From the IMG/VR virus record IMGVR_UViG_2671181111_000008: 5,053 nucleotides of DNA, one strand, 5' to 3'. The notes under the pieces are model-generated. The model saw nothing but the letters and a program-made list of their open reading frames with translations, had not been told where the DNA came from and did no database searches. Positions 1-5,053 of this stretch are shown piece by piece. The stretch comes from a virus (Duplodnaviria; Heunggongvirae; Uroviricota; Caudoviricetes). The position numbers and the translations under genes were made by a program. The first letter of the stretch is position 1, and each line of letters begins with the position of its first letter.

Positions 1-61
1 ATAGATGGGCGCGATTGTTGCCAGACAGGACAATTTTCACAAGACGTCGCTGATGGGGCGC

Positions 62-82
62 TTACCGTAATGATGGCGACAT
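62..82 (-). pseudogene. Probable remnant of an SAR-endolysin (R21-like) start: ATG overlapping the holin stop, then MSPSLR and TAA
   Basis: Minus strand reads GAA-TAA-TG: ATG at 82..80 overlaps the S stop (84..82) in a TAATG arrangement, as in lambdoid S-R junctions. It translates M-S-P-S-L-R and then stops at TAA (64..62). From memory, phage 21 endolysin begins MPPSLRK. Downstream sequence does not continue an endolysin-like frame. Confidence 0.35.
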
Positions 83-297
83 TATTCACCTCTCGCAGCC
101 TTACGCTTGTCTTCTCTGATTTTGAAGTACAGATTTGTCAGATAAGTCAGGAAGCCCAGAACCAGACTCCCCAGTACACCAATCGCAGCCCACTGTGACG
201 GACTGACCTGATCAAGCCACTGTAAAAACCAGTAGCCAGCACTGCCTGCGGAGGTGCCGTAGGCAATGCCCGTTGAAATTTTGTCCATGGATTTCAT
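82..297 (-). CDS. S: Class II holin / pinholin, S21-like (71 aa)
   Basis: 71-codon ORF with ATG at 297..295 and GGAGG Shine-Dalgarno (309..305) 7 nt upstream. N-terminus MKSMDK gives the Met1/Met4 dual-start motif. Two hydrophobic segments and a charged C-tail ([13 protein letters not shown]). The sequence matches my recollection of the phage 21 pinholin. Position downstream of Q and tRNAs fits a lambdoid late operon. Confidence 0.85.
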
Positions 298-589: not shown

Positions 590-656
<67 letters not shown>

Positions 657-664
<8 letters not shown>

Positions 665-795
665 NNNNNNNNNNNNNNNNNNNNNNNNNNNNNNNNNNNN
701 NNNNNNNNNNNNNNNNNNNNNNNNNNNNNNNNNNNNNNNNNNNNNNNNNNNNNNNNNNNNNNNNNNNNNNNNNNNNNNNNNNNNNNNNNNNNNNN
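657..795. other. 139-nt run of N (assembly gap or masked sequence)
   Basis: Read directly. It removes the 5' end of the tRNA at 590-664 and about 130 nt of what is otherwise tRNA-cluster spacer. Confidence 1.
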
Positions 796-817
796 ACCTA
801 CTGAGCCAAGTCGGCAC

Positions 818-894
818 TGGACCGCCACCGGGGACTCGAACCTCGCACACTCAACTTAAAGGGTTGACGCTCTTTCCTGATGAGCTAGTGGCGG
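818..894 (-). tRNA. tRNA-like gene with atypical anticodon loop CCUUUAA (C33; anticodon positions read UUU); isotype uncertain
   Basis: Reverse complement folds as a cloverleaf: perfect 7-bp acceptor stem (CCGCCAC/GTGGCGG, C1-G72), D-stem GCTC/GAGC with 9-nt loop containing GG, anticodon stem TCAAC/GTTGA, 5-nt variable loop, T-arm CGAGG-TTCGAGT-CCCCG with one A-C mismatch, discriminator U, encoded CCA at 820..818. Position 33 is C rather than the near-universal U. Confidence 0.6.
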
Positions 895-895
895 T

Positions 896-971
896 TGGTG
901 GCCCTTGCTGGATTTGAACCAGCGACCTGGCGATTATGAGTCGCTCGCTCTCACCACTGAGCTAAAGGGCC
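896..971 (-). tRNA. ileZ: tRNA with CAU anticodon, tRNA-Ile2 (lysidine-type, ileZ-like) rather than tRNA-Met
   Basis: 76-nt cloverleaf: acceptor GGCCCTT/AAGGGCC, D-arm GCTC-AGTGGTGA-GAGC, anticodon loop CUCAUAA (U33, anticodon CAU), T-arm GCTGG-TTCAAAT-CCAGC, discriminator A, encoded CCA. It closely resembles my recollection of E. coli tRNA-Ile2 (ileX), and lambdoid Q-to-S regions typically carry ileZ. Confidence 0.8.
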
Positions 972-980
972 GAGCGCAGG

Positions 981-1009
981 ATAATAACGTTACGAAATCA
1001 ATGTTGCAA
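981..1009 (-). promoter_or_regulatory. Candidate sigma70 promoter for the tRNA cluster (TTGCAA -17- TATTAT)
   Basis: On the minus strand, -35 TTGCAA (1009..1004), 17-nt spacer, -10 TATTAT (986..981), then a GC-rich discriminator cctgcgctc before the tRNA 5' end at 971. The predicted start lies only about 4-6 nt upstream of the mature tRNA. Confidence 0.4.
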
Positions 1010-1069
1010 GCATTCAAAAATCACCCTTATCTCCTCCACCAGCGCATTCACCATGTCTATCCGAGATAA

Positions 1070-1100
1070 GTGGCACAAAAAACCCGCTTGTGGGCGGGTT
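1070..1100 (-). terminator. Rho-independent terminator (candidate tR-prime), bidirectional in appearance
   Basis: Stem aacccgc (1081-1087) / gcgggtt (1094-1100) with 6-nt loop. On the minus strand it is followed by UUUUUUGUG; on the plus strand by ttgtttgctttt. It lies 70-100 nt downstream of the Q-like stop. Confidence 0.6.
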
Positions 1101-1152
1101 TTGTTTGCTTTTGCCATCACGTACAAAATCGGCAAAATATCAGATTTGCATG

Positions 1153-1181
1153 AATATATGCCTTTCAATCTACTTTTGCAA
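1153..1181 (-). promoter_or_regulatory. Candidate late promoter (pR-prime-like), TTGCAA -17- TATATT, overlapping the Q-like stop codon
   Basis: On the minus strand, -35 TTGCAA (1181..1176), 17-nt spacer containing the TAG stop (1172..1170), -10 TATATT (1158..1153). The predicted start near 1146 would give a short transcript ending at the terminator at 1070-1100, the geometry expected of a Q-modified late promoter. Confidence 0.45.
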
Positions 1182-1880
1182 CACTTTGCTTTGAAAATGC
1201 CGTCTTTTTTTTGAACGTGTTCTCATTACAAACAATAAAGCCTCACTATCCAGTCGGTGAAAAATGTGTTTCATTACAACCCAGTGACCAGTAAATGTTT
1301 TGGACCAGTTTTTGGTTGTTACTCCCGCCAGTAATGCCAGCTCCTGATATTCATAACCTTCCCCACCAACCTGGTATTCATAACCTTCCCCACCAAAAAG
1401 TTCTGCTTTTACTGCCTGCGCCGCCAGCCAGATTAATTTTTTCAGGCGTTCCTGCGTTTTCCCTGCAATTTTTCTGGTACCGGATTGAGCATTAAATTCA
1501 TTCCACGCCCACTGTGTTATCGCGATCTGATATTCCCAACAAATACTCCCGCTGTAACACCACAACAACCAGGCTTTATGATGTTCTTCAAGAGACAGAA
1601 CAGCCCGCCGCCACGATGATGTCGAAAACTCAACCGGACTGACCAGAGGAATTGACGTCCCCTTCGCCAGCGATTGCTTTCCCGGGATTGGTGGATTATC
1701 CCGCGTTATCATTTTTCCAGTCACTTCATCGCGGTACCGGATTTTTTTACGCCTGTAACGCCCTGTATCGAACATGGCATTCTCTTGCCAGGCTTCAAGC
1801 TGACCTTTTGTTGCCCCACTCAAATCAGCGGTGGCGATAATGAGCTGCTCACGCACAAACTGTAAATACTGGTTATTCAT
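1170..1880 (-). CDS. Putative late-gene antiterminator (Q-like, about 236 aa), assigned mainly by synteny
   Basis: Long ORF immediately downstream of rusA and upstream of the candidate late promoter, terminator, tRNAs and holin, which is the canonical Q position. The ORF track starts at a GTG (1886); the ATG at 1880..1878 overlaps the rusA TGA stop as ATGA and is the more likely start. I do not recognise a specific Q-family motif, so the function is inferred. Confidence 0.55.
   Translation of the reverse strand: MNNQYLQFVREQLIIATADLSGATKGQLEAWQENAMFDTGRYRRKKIRYRDEVTGKMITRDNPPIPGKQSLAKGTSIPLVSPVEFSTSSWRRAVLSLEEHHKAWLLWCYSGSICWEYQIAITQWAWNEFNAQSGTRKIAGKTQERLKKLIWLAAQAVKAELFGGEGYEYQVGGEGYEYQELALLAGVTTKNWSKTFTGHWVVMKHIFHRLDSEALLFVMRTRSKKRRHFQSKVLQK
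1343..1396. repeat. Tandem 27-bp direct duplication (26/27 identical) inside the Q-like CDS, encoding GGEGYEYQ twice
   Basis: Copy 1 at 1343-1369 (cctgatattcataaccttccccaccaa) and copy 2 at 1370-1396 (cctggtattcataaccttccccaccaa). In frame, giving GGEGYEYQV-GGEGYEYQE in the protein. Confidence 0.9.
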
Positions 1881-2242
1881 GCGCACCCCAGTTCTGTGAT
1901 TTTTATCCCCAGCCGCCCACCAGGAACGAGCTGACCGCGCACAATATTGATTTCATCAAACTGCTCGTCGTCTATAAGTAGTCCAGCATGCGTCAGCGCA
2001 TCCAGCGGTGCCTTCAGGATATTGTCCAGGTCACGACGGCGCTTATCCGGTGGCTCTGCAATAATCTTTATCGCCAGCCTTCCGGACAGGTTTAATTTCA
2101 GTCGCTGCTGGCGAACAATTAGCGCCACATCACGGCGATAACGCTCACCGGCTTTTGATACAAAATATGTGCTGCCACGACGTCGCCAGTAGGTGTTCAC
2201 CGTTGGCGGGTAAGGCAAAACAAATTCTATGCGTTCGGTCAT
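1877..2242 (-). CDS. rusA: Crossover junction endodeoxyribonuclease RusA (Holliday junction resolvase)
   Basis: 121-aa ORF with clear similarity to my recollection of E. coli RusA: PDKRRRDLDN (vs RusA PDRRRRDLDN), LIDDEQ acidic pair, C-terminal GGRLGIKITELG (vs GGRLELTITEMG). ATG at 2242..2240 directly follows the upstream TAA (TAAATG). Confidence 0.9.
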   Translation of the reverse strand: MTERIEFVLPYPPTVNTYWRRRGSTYFVSKAGERYRRDVALIVRQQRLKLNLSGRLAIKIIAEPPDKRRRDLDNILKAPLDALTHAGLLIDDEQFDEINIVRGQLVPGGRLGIKITELGCA

Positions 2243-3301
2243 TTATGCTTTCCACTTCAGAACACCCGAATTTCTCGCGTGCATTAAAAAACGAATCAGC
2301 AACAACAACTGACTACCGTGTTTTTCTTCAAAATCTTTTACCCCGGCGTGTAGTTCGTTATGGCATTTACGACACAGCGGAATAACAAACAAATCGTCAG
2401 CCTTTGTTCCCATCCCTCCCAGTCCATGACCAATGATGTGGTGCGGATCATCTGCCTGATTGCCACACGTCATGCATTTCTGCGTTTTTACCCAGCGCGT
2501 GTATACAGGCATCTCTTCCCGTTGTGGTTTCTGGCGCTGGAGATACTGAGCCGGAGATTCCGGATCAACGGCAATGCTGACCACCGTCTCTTCCTGTGGT
2601 GGATTCTGTTGCTGGTGGGCGTGAGGCAGCGGCGCAAGATTTTTTGTGCGCTGCTTCAGTATGCTGGTGGAGGTCTGCTCTCCCGGCACGATGTCGCTTT
2701 CACGGTACATTGAGCGGATTTTTTCCGCACGCAACCCCAGCGAACGACGTAATACCGCTTCCGGTAGCGCGTCCGCCACCTGATTGCGGACCGCCCACCA
2801 GGATAATTCAGCCAGAGATAATTCACGCTCCTGCGTACCGCTTATTGCGTGACCGATGACGTCAATCATCCATGCTGACAGGTTTTGATGAGCAAGTTGC
2901 TCGAGTGATTCGGATGTCTGGTCACGCAACTGGTTGTCGCAGTGCCAGCACAACACCATTGCGCCGGTACCATAACGGTGAATGACGGTTTCGCTGTGAT
3001 GATAATCGCCGTGTGGCCACTGGCAGGATTTCATATGGCGCAACAGCCAGTCAGACAATGCGCCAGCACCACCAGCAGCACGAATCACCCGTGCGTTACT
3101 GAAAAACGGCAGCAATGTTTTGTCTTCCACCAGCGGCTGGCGAACGGCAGGAACGACCCCGGACGGCAGATTACGCATGCTTTTCGGTTCCGGCTCCACC
3201 AGTACCCGGGTATTGTGGAATACCGGCATGGATTCACGGCCTGGCTTAAGGACCACCAGCCCGAGTTCCGGAACCAGAACAGGTCGAAGTAATACCCGCA
3301 C
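2243..3301 (-). CDS. Prophage nin-region protein, DUF968/YdfU-like with a C-terminal NinG/YbcO-like Cys-His module; probable GTG start
   Basis: 352-codon ORF. C-terminal segment CMTCGNQADDPHHIIGHGLGGMGTKADDLFVIPLCRKCHNELH has the CxxC...H...CxxCH pattern I recall from lambda NinG (Rap) and DLP12 YbcO. Size and position resemble Qin-prophage ydfU. Start is GTG at 3301..3299 with GGAGG (3310..3306) 4 nt upstream; the in-window ATG at 3303 is in another frame. Confidence 0.7.
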   Translation of the reverse strand: MRVLLRPVLVPELGLVVLKPGRESMPVFHNTRVLVEPEPKSMRNLPSGVVPAVRQPLVEDKTLLPFFSNARVIRAAGGAGALSDWLLRHMKSCQWPHGDYHHSETVIHRYGTGAMVLCWHCDNQLRDQTSESLEQLAHQNLSAWMIDVIGHAISGTQERELSLAELSWWAVRNQVADALPEAVLRRSLGLRAEKIRSMYRESDIVPGEQTSTSILKQRTKNLAPLPHAHQQQNPPQEETVVSIAVDPESPAQYLQRQKPQREEMPVYTRWVKTQKCMTCGNQADDPHHIIGHGLGGMGTKADDLFVIPLCRKCHNELHAGVKDFEEKHGSQLLLLIRFLMHARNSGVLKWKA

Positions 3302-3302
3302 A

Positions 3303-3581
3303 TTACCTCCAGATCCGTTGCTGGAATGTGCAGGACGGACGCGGTGGCCGTTCGGAATAAGGGAGCCTGACGAAGATTATCCAGTGACGATAATCGAGAC
3401 TGAGGGCTTTCTTAATCTCGTATCCGTGTCTGCGGTAGCGCTGAATCAGCCATTCAGCCTGTTCTTCGGTGCAGGGGTCGTGCTGATACCAGTCAGATTT
3501 GAATGCATGAGAACGCCGCCCGTGCCTGCTGGCAGGGGCGGCAGAGTTATCCGAATTGTAAAATTTGGTATCGTGCGCCAT
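3303..3581 (-). CDS. Hypothetical prophage protein (92 aa); the ORF-track 135-aa version is over-extended
   Basis: The track ORF starts at a GTG (3710) upstream of, and spanning, the hok terminator (3653-3680), so its first 43 codons are likely untranslated. The first ATG after the terminator is at 3581..3579. The stop TAA (3305..3303) sits 1 nt before the downstream GTG. No recognisable motif; the SD is weak. Confidence 0.45.
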   Translation of the reverse strand: MAHDTKFYNSDNSAAPASRHGRRSHAFKSDWYQHDPCTEEQAEWLIQRYRRHGYEIKKALSLDYRHWIIFVRLPYSERPPRPSCTFQQRIWR

Positions 3582-3652
3582 CTGTTTTCTCTGCTGGCGC
3601 AGCAGGTGCCAGTTGTTCAGGCTGACGGATGGATTGTAAACCAGAACGACCA

Positions 3653-3680
3653 GAAAAAACAAAACCCGCCGAAGCGGGTT
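3653..3680 (-). terminator. Rho-independent terminator of the hok transcript (UUCG tetraloop hairpin plus U-tract)
   Basis: Minus-strand RNA: stem aacccgc / gcgggtt (3680..3674 and 3669..3663) closed by a UUCG loop, followed by UUUUGUUUUUUC (3662..3651). Confidence 0.7.
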
Positions 3681-3748
3681 AAGTGCGGGTGCGTTGAGGA
3701 TGCCTGACACATCAGCGGTGGCGAGGGATTTCTCCCCCGCCGGGTCTC

Positions 3749-3904
3749 TTACTCCTCAGGTTCGTAAGCTGTGAAGACAGCGACCTCCGTCTGGCCGGTT
3801 CGGATTCGTACCTCGCAGAGGTCTTTCCTCGTTACCAGTGCCGTCACTATGACGGTTAAACAGATGACGATCAGGGCGATTAACATCGCCTTTTGCTGCT
3901 TCAT
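3749..3904 (-). CDS. hok: Hok/Gef-family type I toxin (51 aa), HokD/RelF-like
   Basis: Translation MKQQKAMLIALIVICLTVIVTALVTRKDLCEVRIRTGQTEVAVFTAYEPEE matches my recollection of E. coli HokD/RelF. Single N-terminal TM segment and conserved Cys. ATG at 3904..3902 preceded by AAGGAG about 9 nt upstream. The 70-aa track ORF is an in-frame upstream extension. Confidence 0.9.
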   Translation of the reverse strand: MKQQKAMLIALIVICLTVIVTALVTRKDLCEVRIRTGQTEVAVFTAYEPEE

Positions 3905-4078
3905 AGCCTGCTTCTCCTTGCCTTTCGGCACGTAAGAGGCTAACCTACATGTGTTCAGCATGGATTGAGCCTCAGATTAATGTTAAGCGTCTTGCAGGAC
4001 GCGTAATGTTAACTGGGGCTTTTCTCTATCTGCCTTTTGGTGTTCATGCCTGAGACAGATAGCCTCAAGCACCCGCAG
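3905..4078 (-). promoter_or_regulatory. hok mRNA 5' leader (tac-like 5' end, 5' stem-loop, upstream translation-initiation region)
   Basis: Minus-strand sequence gcttgaggctatctg...cagatag...agcctcttac...gcaaggagaag...ATG parallels the plasmid R1 hok leader as I recall it. The 5' segment (about 4078..4063) is complementary, with one bulge, to the 3' UTR segment (about 3700..3685), the fold-back arrangement characteristic of hok mRNAs. Confidence 0.5.
3975..4075 (+). ncRNA. Candidate Sok-like antisense RNA region (ends not determined)
   Basis: By analogy with hok/sok, the antitoxin RNA is transcribed antisense to the hok leader, starting near the upstream initiation region and running toward the hok mRNA 5' end. 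The plus strand here carries weak -10 candidates (TAATGT at 3978-3983 and 4004-4009) and the complement of the hok 5' stem-loop. I could not fix a clean promoter or terminator. Confidence 0.3.
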
Positions 4079-4080
4079 TC

Positions 4081-4109
4081 ATTCTACTTAACTAAGATTT
4101 CCCTGCAAA
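4081..4109 (-). promoter_or_regulatory. Candidate sigma70 promoter of hok mRNA (TTTGCA/TTGCAG -16/17- TAGAAT)
   Basis: On the minus strand, -35 TTGCAG (4108..4103), 16-nt spacer, -10 TAGAAT (4086..4081). Predicted start near 4074, just upstream of the gcgggtgcttgaggct leader segment. Confidence 0.5.
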
Positions 4110-4163
4110 CCGTTTTTGTCCGGCACAGTAAATATCCAACTAAACCAATAGCGTTCGCTGTAT

Positions 4164-4343
4164 TTACCGCCAGTATTCAATGCACATGACCGCCATGAAC
4201 ACCCCTAAAAAAAGGGCATTTATATGTCCAAACATTAATATCAAAACATCAATTTTTTCCATATACCTTGCTGTGAAGATGATGGGCATACATGATGCGA
4301 ACAACCAGAACGCAACAAACAAAAACTGCAATGCGTTTTTCAT
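4164..4343 (-). CDS. Possible small hydrophobic (two-TM) protein, 59 aa, in an AT-rich island
   Basis: Internal ATG (4343..4341) of the 72-aa track ORF is preceded by AGGGGGAATA, an acceptable SD about 5 nt upstream. Product MKNALQFLFVAFWLFASCMPIIFTARYMEKIDVLILMFGHINALFLGVFMAVMCIEYWR has two hydrophobic stretches. AT-rich DNA readily produces spurious ORFs, and an overlapping antisense ORF exists. Confidence 0.25.
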   Translation of the reverse strand: MKNALQFLFVAFWLFASCMPIIFTARYMEKIDVLILMFGHINALFLGVFMAVMCIEYWR

Positions 4344-4555
4344 TATTCCCCCTACAATCAATGTGCAATAACATTTAAACACACCTCAATTTGGCCGGAC
4401 ATATAAATATCTAAACCAGAAAAAATCACTTACATAGCGTTACAAACTCTTTAGTCTAAATACTCATCGTAAAACATTCCCCATACTTATCAGTCCGTTC
4501 CGCGCCAGGTAGCTTATTGCCTTATCTGGCAACCTATAATCAGGTTTCCGCTTTT

Positions 4556-4978
4556 TCAGTTGGCTGGTCGTTTAACCGACATAGTTAACCCATTAATCTG
4601 GTTGCCGGATGCTGGTGGATTTTCGCGTTTTAGTTGTTCATAAAAGTGCACAGCTTTAACCAGTTCTTCTGATGTAACCGGGACTGGTGGGGCAGTGAAT
4701 AAGGCCTGAATTTCATAGTTCGGCCTGTCGTTACAATCCTCTTTTTTCGGTACATATTTCCAGTCACCAACCCACAACTCCCCCTGAGAGTCCATAACAC
4801 CTTTTTTCACGTAGCGATATCGCCACGCTATCGGCTCTGCTTCCAGCGATGCCCGTGCAATTTTGAATAACTCGCCCTCTACTCGCGCCATCCCTGAATT
4901 GGGGTGGCATTTCGTAATCGCTATTTTTAATTTGGCTTCTTCGATTAATTGTTCTTTTGTTAATTCAGTCATTTTCAT
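4556..4978 (-). CDS. Hypothetical protein (140 aa), unknown function
   Basis: ATG-initiated ORF (4978..4976) of normal GC content and non-repetitive composition, same orientation as the rest of the prophage genes. I recognise no motifs. The IS1 end lies 9 bp upstream of its start codon. Confidence 0.6.
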   Translation of the reverse strand: MKMTELTKEQLIEEAKLKIAITKCHPNSGMARVEGELFKIARASLEAEPIAWRYRYVKKGVMDSQGELWVGDWKYVPKKEDCNDRPNYEIQALFTAPPVPVTSEELVKAVHFYEQLKRENPPASGNQINGLTMSVKRPAN

Positions 4979-4987
4979 TACCGCCCT

Positions 4988-5053
4988 GGTAATGCTGCCA
5001 ACTTACTGATTTAGTGTATGATGGTGATTTTAAGGTGCTTGCGTGGCTTCCAT
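4988..5053 (+). mobile_element. Left end of an IS1-family insertion sequence (divergent isoform), truncated by the window edge
   Basis: ggtaatgctgccaacttactgatttagtgtatgatggtgattttaaggtgcttgcgtggcttccat aligns with my recollection of the IS1 left end (GGTGATGCTGCCAACTTACTGATTTAGTGTATGATGGTGTTTTTGAGGTGCTCCAGTGGCTTCTG), with about 8 mismatches in 66 nt. Confidence 0.85.
5043..5053 (+). CDS. insA: Start of IS1 insA (partial, runs off the window)
   Basis: GTG GCT TCC AT.. at 5043 onward corresponds to the InsA N-terminus M-A-S of IS1, at the expected distance from the left inverted repeat. Only 11 nt are in the window. Confidence 0.45.

Follow-up and report, generated by a model that had tools for sequence, protein, structure and literature searches.

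The window, by which is meant the whole 5,053-nucleotide (nt) stretch of DNA analysed, carries a tRNA cluster between the gene for antitermination protein Q and the lysis cassette (Table 1). All genes of the cluster lie on one strand and are separated by spacers of 1–3 nt, the arrangement of a lambdoid late region, and the RefSeq annotation of relatives agrees on a placement between the Q and holin genes. In the window as given, ARAGORN finds a minus-strand Lys(UUU) and, on the same strand, a tRNA with a CAU anticodon that the program names Met and RefSeq names tRNA-Ile, but no others. Beyond them stands the only run of Ns in the window, whose coordinates and length of 139 nt had been correctly given in an earlier note on this DNA. 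The run truncates two further minus-strand tRNA genes, tRNA-Thr(UGU) and tRNA-Gly(UCC), and masks no intergenic spacer as such.

Table 1. Coordinates of the tRNA cluster, its neighbours and the ends of the window
Feature	Position	Strand	Remarks
IS66-family terminal 65 nt; reverse complement starts GTAAGCGCCCC	1..65	.	left scaffold end
Class II holin gene, PF04971, P21-type	82..297	-	first gene downstream of the tRNA cluster
tRNA-Gly(UCC), visible 3′ 67 nt (nt 9–75)	590..656	-	identical to E. coli K-12 glyT
Two artefactual ORFs, 622–828 and 650–850	622..850	-	N codons read as X
Run of 139 N	657..795	.	probable scaffold gap, size over-estimated
tRNA-Thr(UGU), visible 5′ 20 nt (GCCGACTTGGCTCAGTAGGT)	796..815	-	thrU with A9G
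Spacer GT, 2 nt, tRNA-Lys/tRNA-Thr	816..817	-	
tRNA-Lys(UUU), argN-type family	818..894	-	ARAGORN; Rfam 44.4 bits
tRNA with CAU anticodon	896..971	-	ARAGORN: Met; RefSeq: tRNA-Ile (ileZ-type Ile2)
Antitermination protein Q gene, PF06323	1170..1880	-	directly upstream of the tRNA cluster
IS1 terminal 66 nt (GGTAATGCTGCCAACTTACTGATTTAGTGTATGATGGTG...)	4988..5053	.	right scaffold end

Two tRNA genes truncated by the N run

The tRNA-Gly gene has lost little to the run. Its visible portion, which in minus-strand sense reads CGTATAATGG...CCCGCTCCA from 656 to 590, comprises the 3′ 67 nt of a 75-nt gene and includes the UCC anticodon, and only nt 1–8 (GCGGGCAT) fall under the Ns. The earlier statement that the run starts 8 nt short of a tRNA 5′ end is therefore exact. 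Rfam finds a partial tRNA match at 601–655 (41.6 bits, where the gathering score is 29; model positions 10–63), and this covariance-model match together with the anticodon identifies the gene as a tRNA-Gly(UCC) of the glyT type.

The tRNA-Thr gene, in contrast, retains only its first 20 nt, which match the Thr gene of relatives at every base, while nt 21–76 lie beneath the run. These 20 nt had gone unrecognized as part of a gene. The distance of 22 nt from the run to the 3′ end of the next tRNA had been counted correctly, tRNA-Lys ending at 818, but it had been read as spacer; positions 815–796 are tRNA-Thr nt 1–20, and the spacer is confined to the GT at 817–816. The proposal that the run could hold one more complete tRNA gene fares similarly: a fourth gene, tRNA-Thr(UGU), does exist and in the window escapes every predictor, but it is not wholly under the mask. 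When the consensus 67 nt of relatives is put back in place of the Ns, ARAGORN calls four tRNAs in the order Ile2(CAU; called Met)-Lys(UUU)-Thr(UGU)-Gly(UCC), with Gly at c[590,664]. The call Thr(tgt) is made both in this restored window and in L006, an IMG/VR contig.

Two open reading frames that run through the Ns had been dismissed as artefacts, and rightly so. Their translations are runs of X, and look-ups found neither product on record as a gene product.

The junction in relatives

In relatives, the minus-strand counterpart of the N run is AGAGCAACTGACTTGTAATCAGTAGGTCACCAGTTCGATTCCGGTAGTCGGCACCA-TAT-GCGGGCAT, a stretch of 66–67 nt that consists of tRNA-Thr nt 21–76, the spacer TAT and tRNA-Gly nt 1–8. 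The 67-nt form comprises 64 nt of tRNA and 3 nt of spacer, which contradicts the roughly 130 nt of hidden spacer assumed earlier. In every relative, the N run exceeds the homologous stretch by 72–73 nt.

L006 matches the window at 100% over 4–656 and with one mismatch over 796–5053, and it has 67 nt at the junction. Together with L014–L022 it forms the group of closest contigs, which share the window's Q allele, have 66–67 nt in place of the Ns and differ from the window solely at position 3872, a synonymous site in hok. Ten NCBI contigs encode the exact Q protein of the window with its rare 27-nt duplication, and all ten have 66–67 nt of the same sequence at the junction. In the complete E. 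coli genomes nearest to the window, tRNA-Ile, -Lys, -Thr and -Gly lie between the Q and class II holin genes, again with 66–67 nt at the junction.

Broader samples give the same length. Both flanks are contained in 31 of the fetched loci, each of which has 66 or 67 nt and is free of N runs. Both flanks are present in 502 complete E. coli genomes; among the best 60 of these 502, every place (60/60) spans the canonical 533–535 nt and only four tRNA names are listed. Two-piece places sampled in another search of complete E. coli genomes have 66–67 nt in seven of seven cases. The junction aligns contiguously in all three phages compared, vB_EcoS-689R5 (ON470583), vB_EcoM-606R7 (ON470580) and PhiR47_1 (PV340566). 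Across 264 loci, Thr(UGU) and Gly(UCC) stand 3–4 nt apart in 40 of the 40 clusters that carry both, and cluster architecture varies at the second tRNA position, never between Thr and Gly.

Gapped pattern scans found the canonical spacing in nine IMG/VR contigs, no spacing of 76–146 nt in IMG/VR (scans of 76–106 and 116–146 nt included), and no spacing of 125–155 nt in species-representative genomes. The exact pattern of the Thr/Lys junction occurs in two other genomes only, both unmasked. A fifth tRNA or a small RNA is absent from the 31 loci, the ten same-allele contigs, 67 listed E. coli genomes, the three phages and the 40 clusters with Thr and Gly. The small RNA that had been suggested as a possible content of the run thus has no counterpart in any relative.

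Copies of host tRNA genes

The source of the Thr and Gly genes is recognizable in the host. In E. coli K-12, the thrU-tyrU-glyT-thrT operon lies upstream of tufB, and its Thr and Gly genes are shared with the prophage. The prophage Thr gene is thrU with the substitution A9G, and its exact shared stretch with the host is 68 nt; the prophage Gly gene is glyT at 75 of 75 positions, with an exact shared stretch of 77 nt. These two stretches abut to form a 145-nt block, and k-mers of any length up to 77 are shared between the prophage locus and the host operon. This block encloses the whole 67-nt counterpart of the N run, a placement that a random interval would have with a chance of 1.6%. The counterpart lies, in other words, inside a repeat of host thrU/glyT, as a scaffold gap caused by repeated sequence would. 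In FDAARGOS_944, the flanks of the run match at 5–7 places. A repeat had been named before as a possible cause of an assembly gap; this suggestion survives in a modified form, since the most plausible repeat is the tRNA pair itself, with its exact copies of host thrU and glyT.

The pair looks like a captured host thrU-tyrU-glyT operon from which tyrU and the spacers were precisely lost, because its TAT spacer corresponds to the host base after thrU followed by the two bases before glyT. In contrast to the host operon, the prophage pair is devoid of tyrU and the host spacers (206/209 nt) as well as of thrT and tufB, and it is set among phage late genes. In a related contig, L107, thrU is still present along with the 8-nt host spacer and 35 nt from the start of tyrU.

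Contig ends and insertion sequences

Both ends of the window lie inside insertion sequences. Relatives free of the left element align with the window from position 66 only, and the IS66 genes continue in L014. On the right, the alignment of relatives ends at 4987, and InsA is encoded just past that end in L006. The prophage in the window appears to be a remnant bounded by IS66-family and IS1 termini. In L014–L019, IS66-family genes follow directly after the holin gene, at the place that genes for lysozyme and a lysis protein occupy in L001 and other intact relatives.

If the N run joins two contigs, four contig ends can be compared. Three of them lie at a depth in repeated sequence that resembles k−1: the outer ends reach 65 nt into the IS66-family element and 66 nt into IS1, and the inner end of the left contig reaches 67 nt into glyT. 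This pattern is as expected for de Bruijn contigs built with a k of about 67. At the fourth end, 796, the depth in the thrU-identical stretch is just 11 nt, against the roughly 66 nt that the same model predicts; a cluster variant diverging near 862, which would explain this end, was not found among the fetched loci. Contigs of 2–5 kb account for 268 of the 405 index blocks of public assemblies in which the exact Q protein occurs, a majority consistent with assemblies that often break at the locus. The similarity of lambdoid prophages to one another hampers draft assemblies (PMC4587872).

Origin of the N run

The N block is very probably an over-estimated scaffold gap in a short-read draft, hiding the end of the Thr gene and the start of the Gly gene of a four-tRNA cluster. 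The window would then be an entire scaffold built from short reads, representing a lambdoid prophage of the E. coli/Shigella group that is degraded and lies between an IS66-family element and IS1. Because its Thr gene copies host thrU almost exactly and its Gly gene copies host glyT exactly, short reads would not be uniquely placeable there. The assembler would yield two contigs, 1–656 and 796–5053, and the scaffolder would join them through a run of Ns, with 139 as the estimated length. From the comparison of sequences we infer both the scaffolder origin of the run and the error in its length.

The length itself behaves as an estimate, with 139 Ns standing against 66–67 nt in all relatives, near-identical ones included. 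With 67 nt as the true gap, the estimate would be 72 nt too long, a large error, and these 72 surplus Ns are best read as an error of estimation. The true sequence under the run is almost certainly the 67 nt of the relatives, with the end of Thr, TAT and the first 8 nt of Gly. The run resembles estimated-size scaffold gaps at short repeats in short-read E. coli/Shigella drafts in its N length, which is not a conventional one, in its place within genome-repeated sequence, in three contig ends about k−1 bases inside repeats, and in a scaffold bounded by insertion sequences. The present case differs from them in that one of the four contig ends departs from the k-mer rule and in that we infer the cause of the gap.

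Were the run instead a base-for-base mask, the source strain would hold a real insertion of about 72 nt between or within the Thr and Gly genes. It might be a partial duplication, a remnant of the host tyrU/spacer region or a small additional tRNA, the fifth of the cluster. The 72–73 nt by which the run exceeds the homologous stretch would then be genuine. With 139 as the true length, subtraction of the Thr (56 nt) and Gly (8 nt) parts leaves 75 nt, roughly the size of a tRNA with short spacers, and the cluster is indeed tightly packed. The thrU, 8-nt spacer and 35 nt of tyrU in L107 also indicate that intermediate forms of the captured operon exist. Nevertheless, more than 100 relatives were examined and none has such a spacing or a fifth gene. 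The flanks match the 67-nt lineages in all but one synonymous base, so that they are compatible only with a very recent insertion that happens to coincide exactly with the unreadable stretch. Duplication of a Thr or Gly unit would add 78–79 nt rather than the 72 needed, and a full hidden tyrU is too large, as its 8+85 nt and the Thr and Gly parts together exceed 139. Moreover, the ends of the window within IS elements mark it as a scaffold of short reads, where the length of an N run is an estimate. An insertion of this kind is thus very unlikely; if the 139 nt were real, they would document a step in the capture and remodelling of host tRNA operons by phages.

There is similarly little probability that the Ns came from a masking or consensus step, applied to low-quality or multi-mapping sequence or during data preparation, over an ordinary Thr-Gly junction and with a padded or arbitrary length. 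Masking in place preserves length, yet 139 differs from 67. Although the genome_contigs collection is described as having a few stretches masked as N, no mask covers homologous loci in the same collections. The deviation of the right contig's inner end from the simple k-mer model speaks for a masking step; the IS-bounded ends and the position in a host-identical repeat are, in contrast, what a scaffold gap predicts. Deliberate masking on the basis of homology is unlikely, the homologous genome_contigs loci L012 and L013 being unmasked.

What an over-estimated scaffold gap would hide here is already known and annotated elsewhere, and the N block is most likely an assembly artefact and no biological feature. 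The interpretation given in the earlier note is partly supported. The practical effect is that the run hides two of the four tRNA genes from predictors and creates two false ORFs. Since tRNA predictors are defeated by the Ns, automated annotation would under-count the tRNAs of such a prophage. Caution is also needed with the size of the run, for the length of a gap is no measure of hidden coding capacity.

Comparison with known tRNA clusters

The three Escherichia phages named above carry the cluster Ile2(CAU)-Lys(UUU)-Thr(UGU)-Gly(UCC) at this place, with Q and holin on either side, and about 500 complete E. coli genomes have it in their prophages. The visible tRNAs of the window are 98–100% identical to theirs, and the order, strand and neighbours, with Q upstream and holin downstream, are alike. 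The window differs in that 64 nt of Thr and Gly are unreadable and in that an IS66-family element and IS1 truncate the prophage. The Thr-Gly pair is a phage copy of host thrU-glyT in a common cluster, already annotated in hundreds of complete genomes.

Stx-converting phages with the ileZ-argN-argO cluster (e.g. AP012530) share the position just downstream of Q, and the first two tRNAs of the window are about 93% identical to their ileZ-argN. Despite this similarity, the second tRNA of the window reads UUU, whereas argN of the Stx phages reads an Arg anticodon. Thr and Gly occupy the third and fourth positions in the window, where the Stx phages carry argO, and no stx genes follow. The phages SfI, Sf6, ST64T, PS3 and P21 also have tRNA genes downstream of Q (PMC3636060).

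The Lys(UUU) tRNA in second position has the anticodon loop CCUUUAA, with a C at position 33. U33 is almost universal in tRNAs. Its kin are the argN-type tRNAs found in second position in clusters downstream of Q, which are Arg(UCG) or, in L158, Arg(UCU) with the anticodon loop CUUCUAA. Of the 33 copies of this tRNA in the fetched loci, 29 are identical, and some records leave the gene unannotated. It may be a retargeted or a decaying tRNA.

Genes for tRNAs at the position downstream of Q are a known feature of lambdoid phages and are thought to supplement rare codons (PMC3636060). Such supplementation has been proposed for the clusters of the Stx-phage and SfI type, and the genes of the window are likewise enriched in ACA and ATA. 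Its seven genes (1063 codons) contain 11.3 ATA and 16.9 ACA per 1000 codons. The published ACA value for S. flexneri Sf301 is 7.1 and that for phage SfI is 17.3, both printed as percentages (PMC3636060). In this model, the cluster would supply decoders for codons such as AUA and ACA.

Expression of the cluster and other features of the window

Consensus matching places a promoter-like site at 1181–1153, overlapping the end of Q, and a strong hairpin followed by a T run lies at 1102–1079 in minus-strand sense, with T runs on both strands. The combination resembles the pR′/tR′ arrangement of a late promoter, as far as motif matching can suggest. A second promoter-like site, also a consensus match only, is located at 1009–981, immediately upstream of the first tRNA. 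The tRNA cluster is most likely transcribed within a Q-dependent late operon, or else from this putative promoter at 1009–981.

The Q gene itself contains a direct repeat with a 27-nt period, in which 22-nt exact copies occupy 1348–1369 and 1375–1396. On the minus strand, this repeat (1348–1396) duplicates nine residues (GGEGYEYQV/E). The duplication occurs in L006 only among 2.9 million IMG/VR contigs, and the exact protein is found in 405 index blocks of public assemblies.

A hok/sok toxin-antitoxin locus lies at 3749–4074 on the minus strand, where Rfam finds sok at 3899–4074 with 118.9 bits and a 51-aa Hok ORF spans 3749–3904. Within this ORF, position 3872 is C in the window and A in all near-identical relatives compared base by base, a synonymous difference in codon Leu11 of Hok. 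The C allele is common among other hok copies: 240 unrelated loci matched, and these loci were reused as a survey set.
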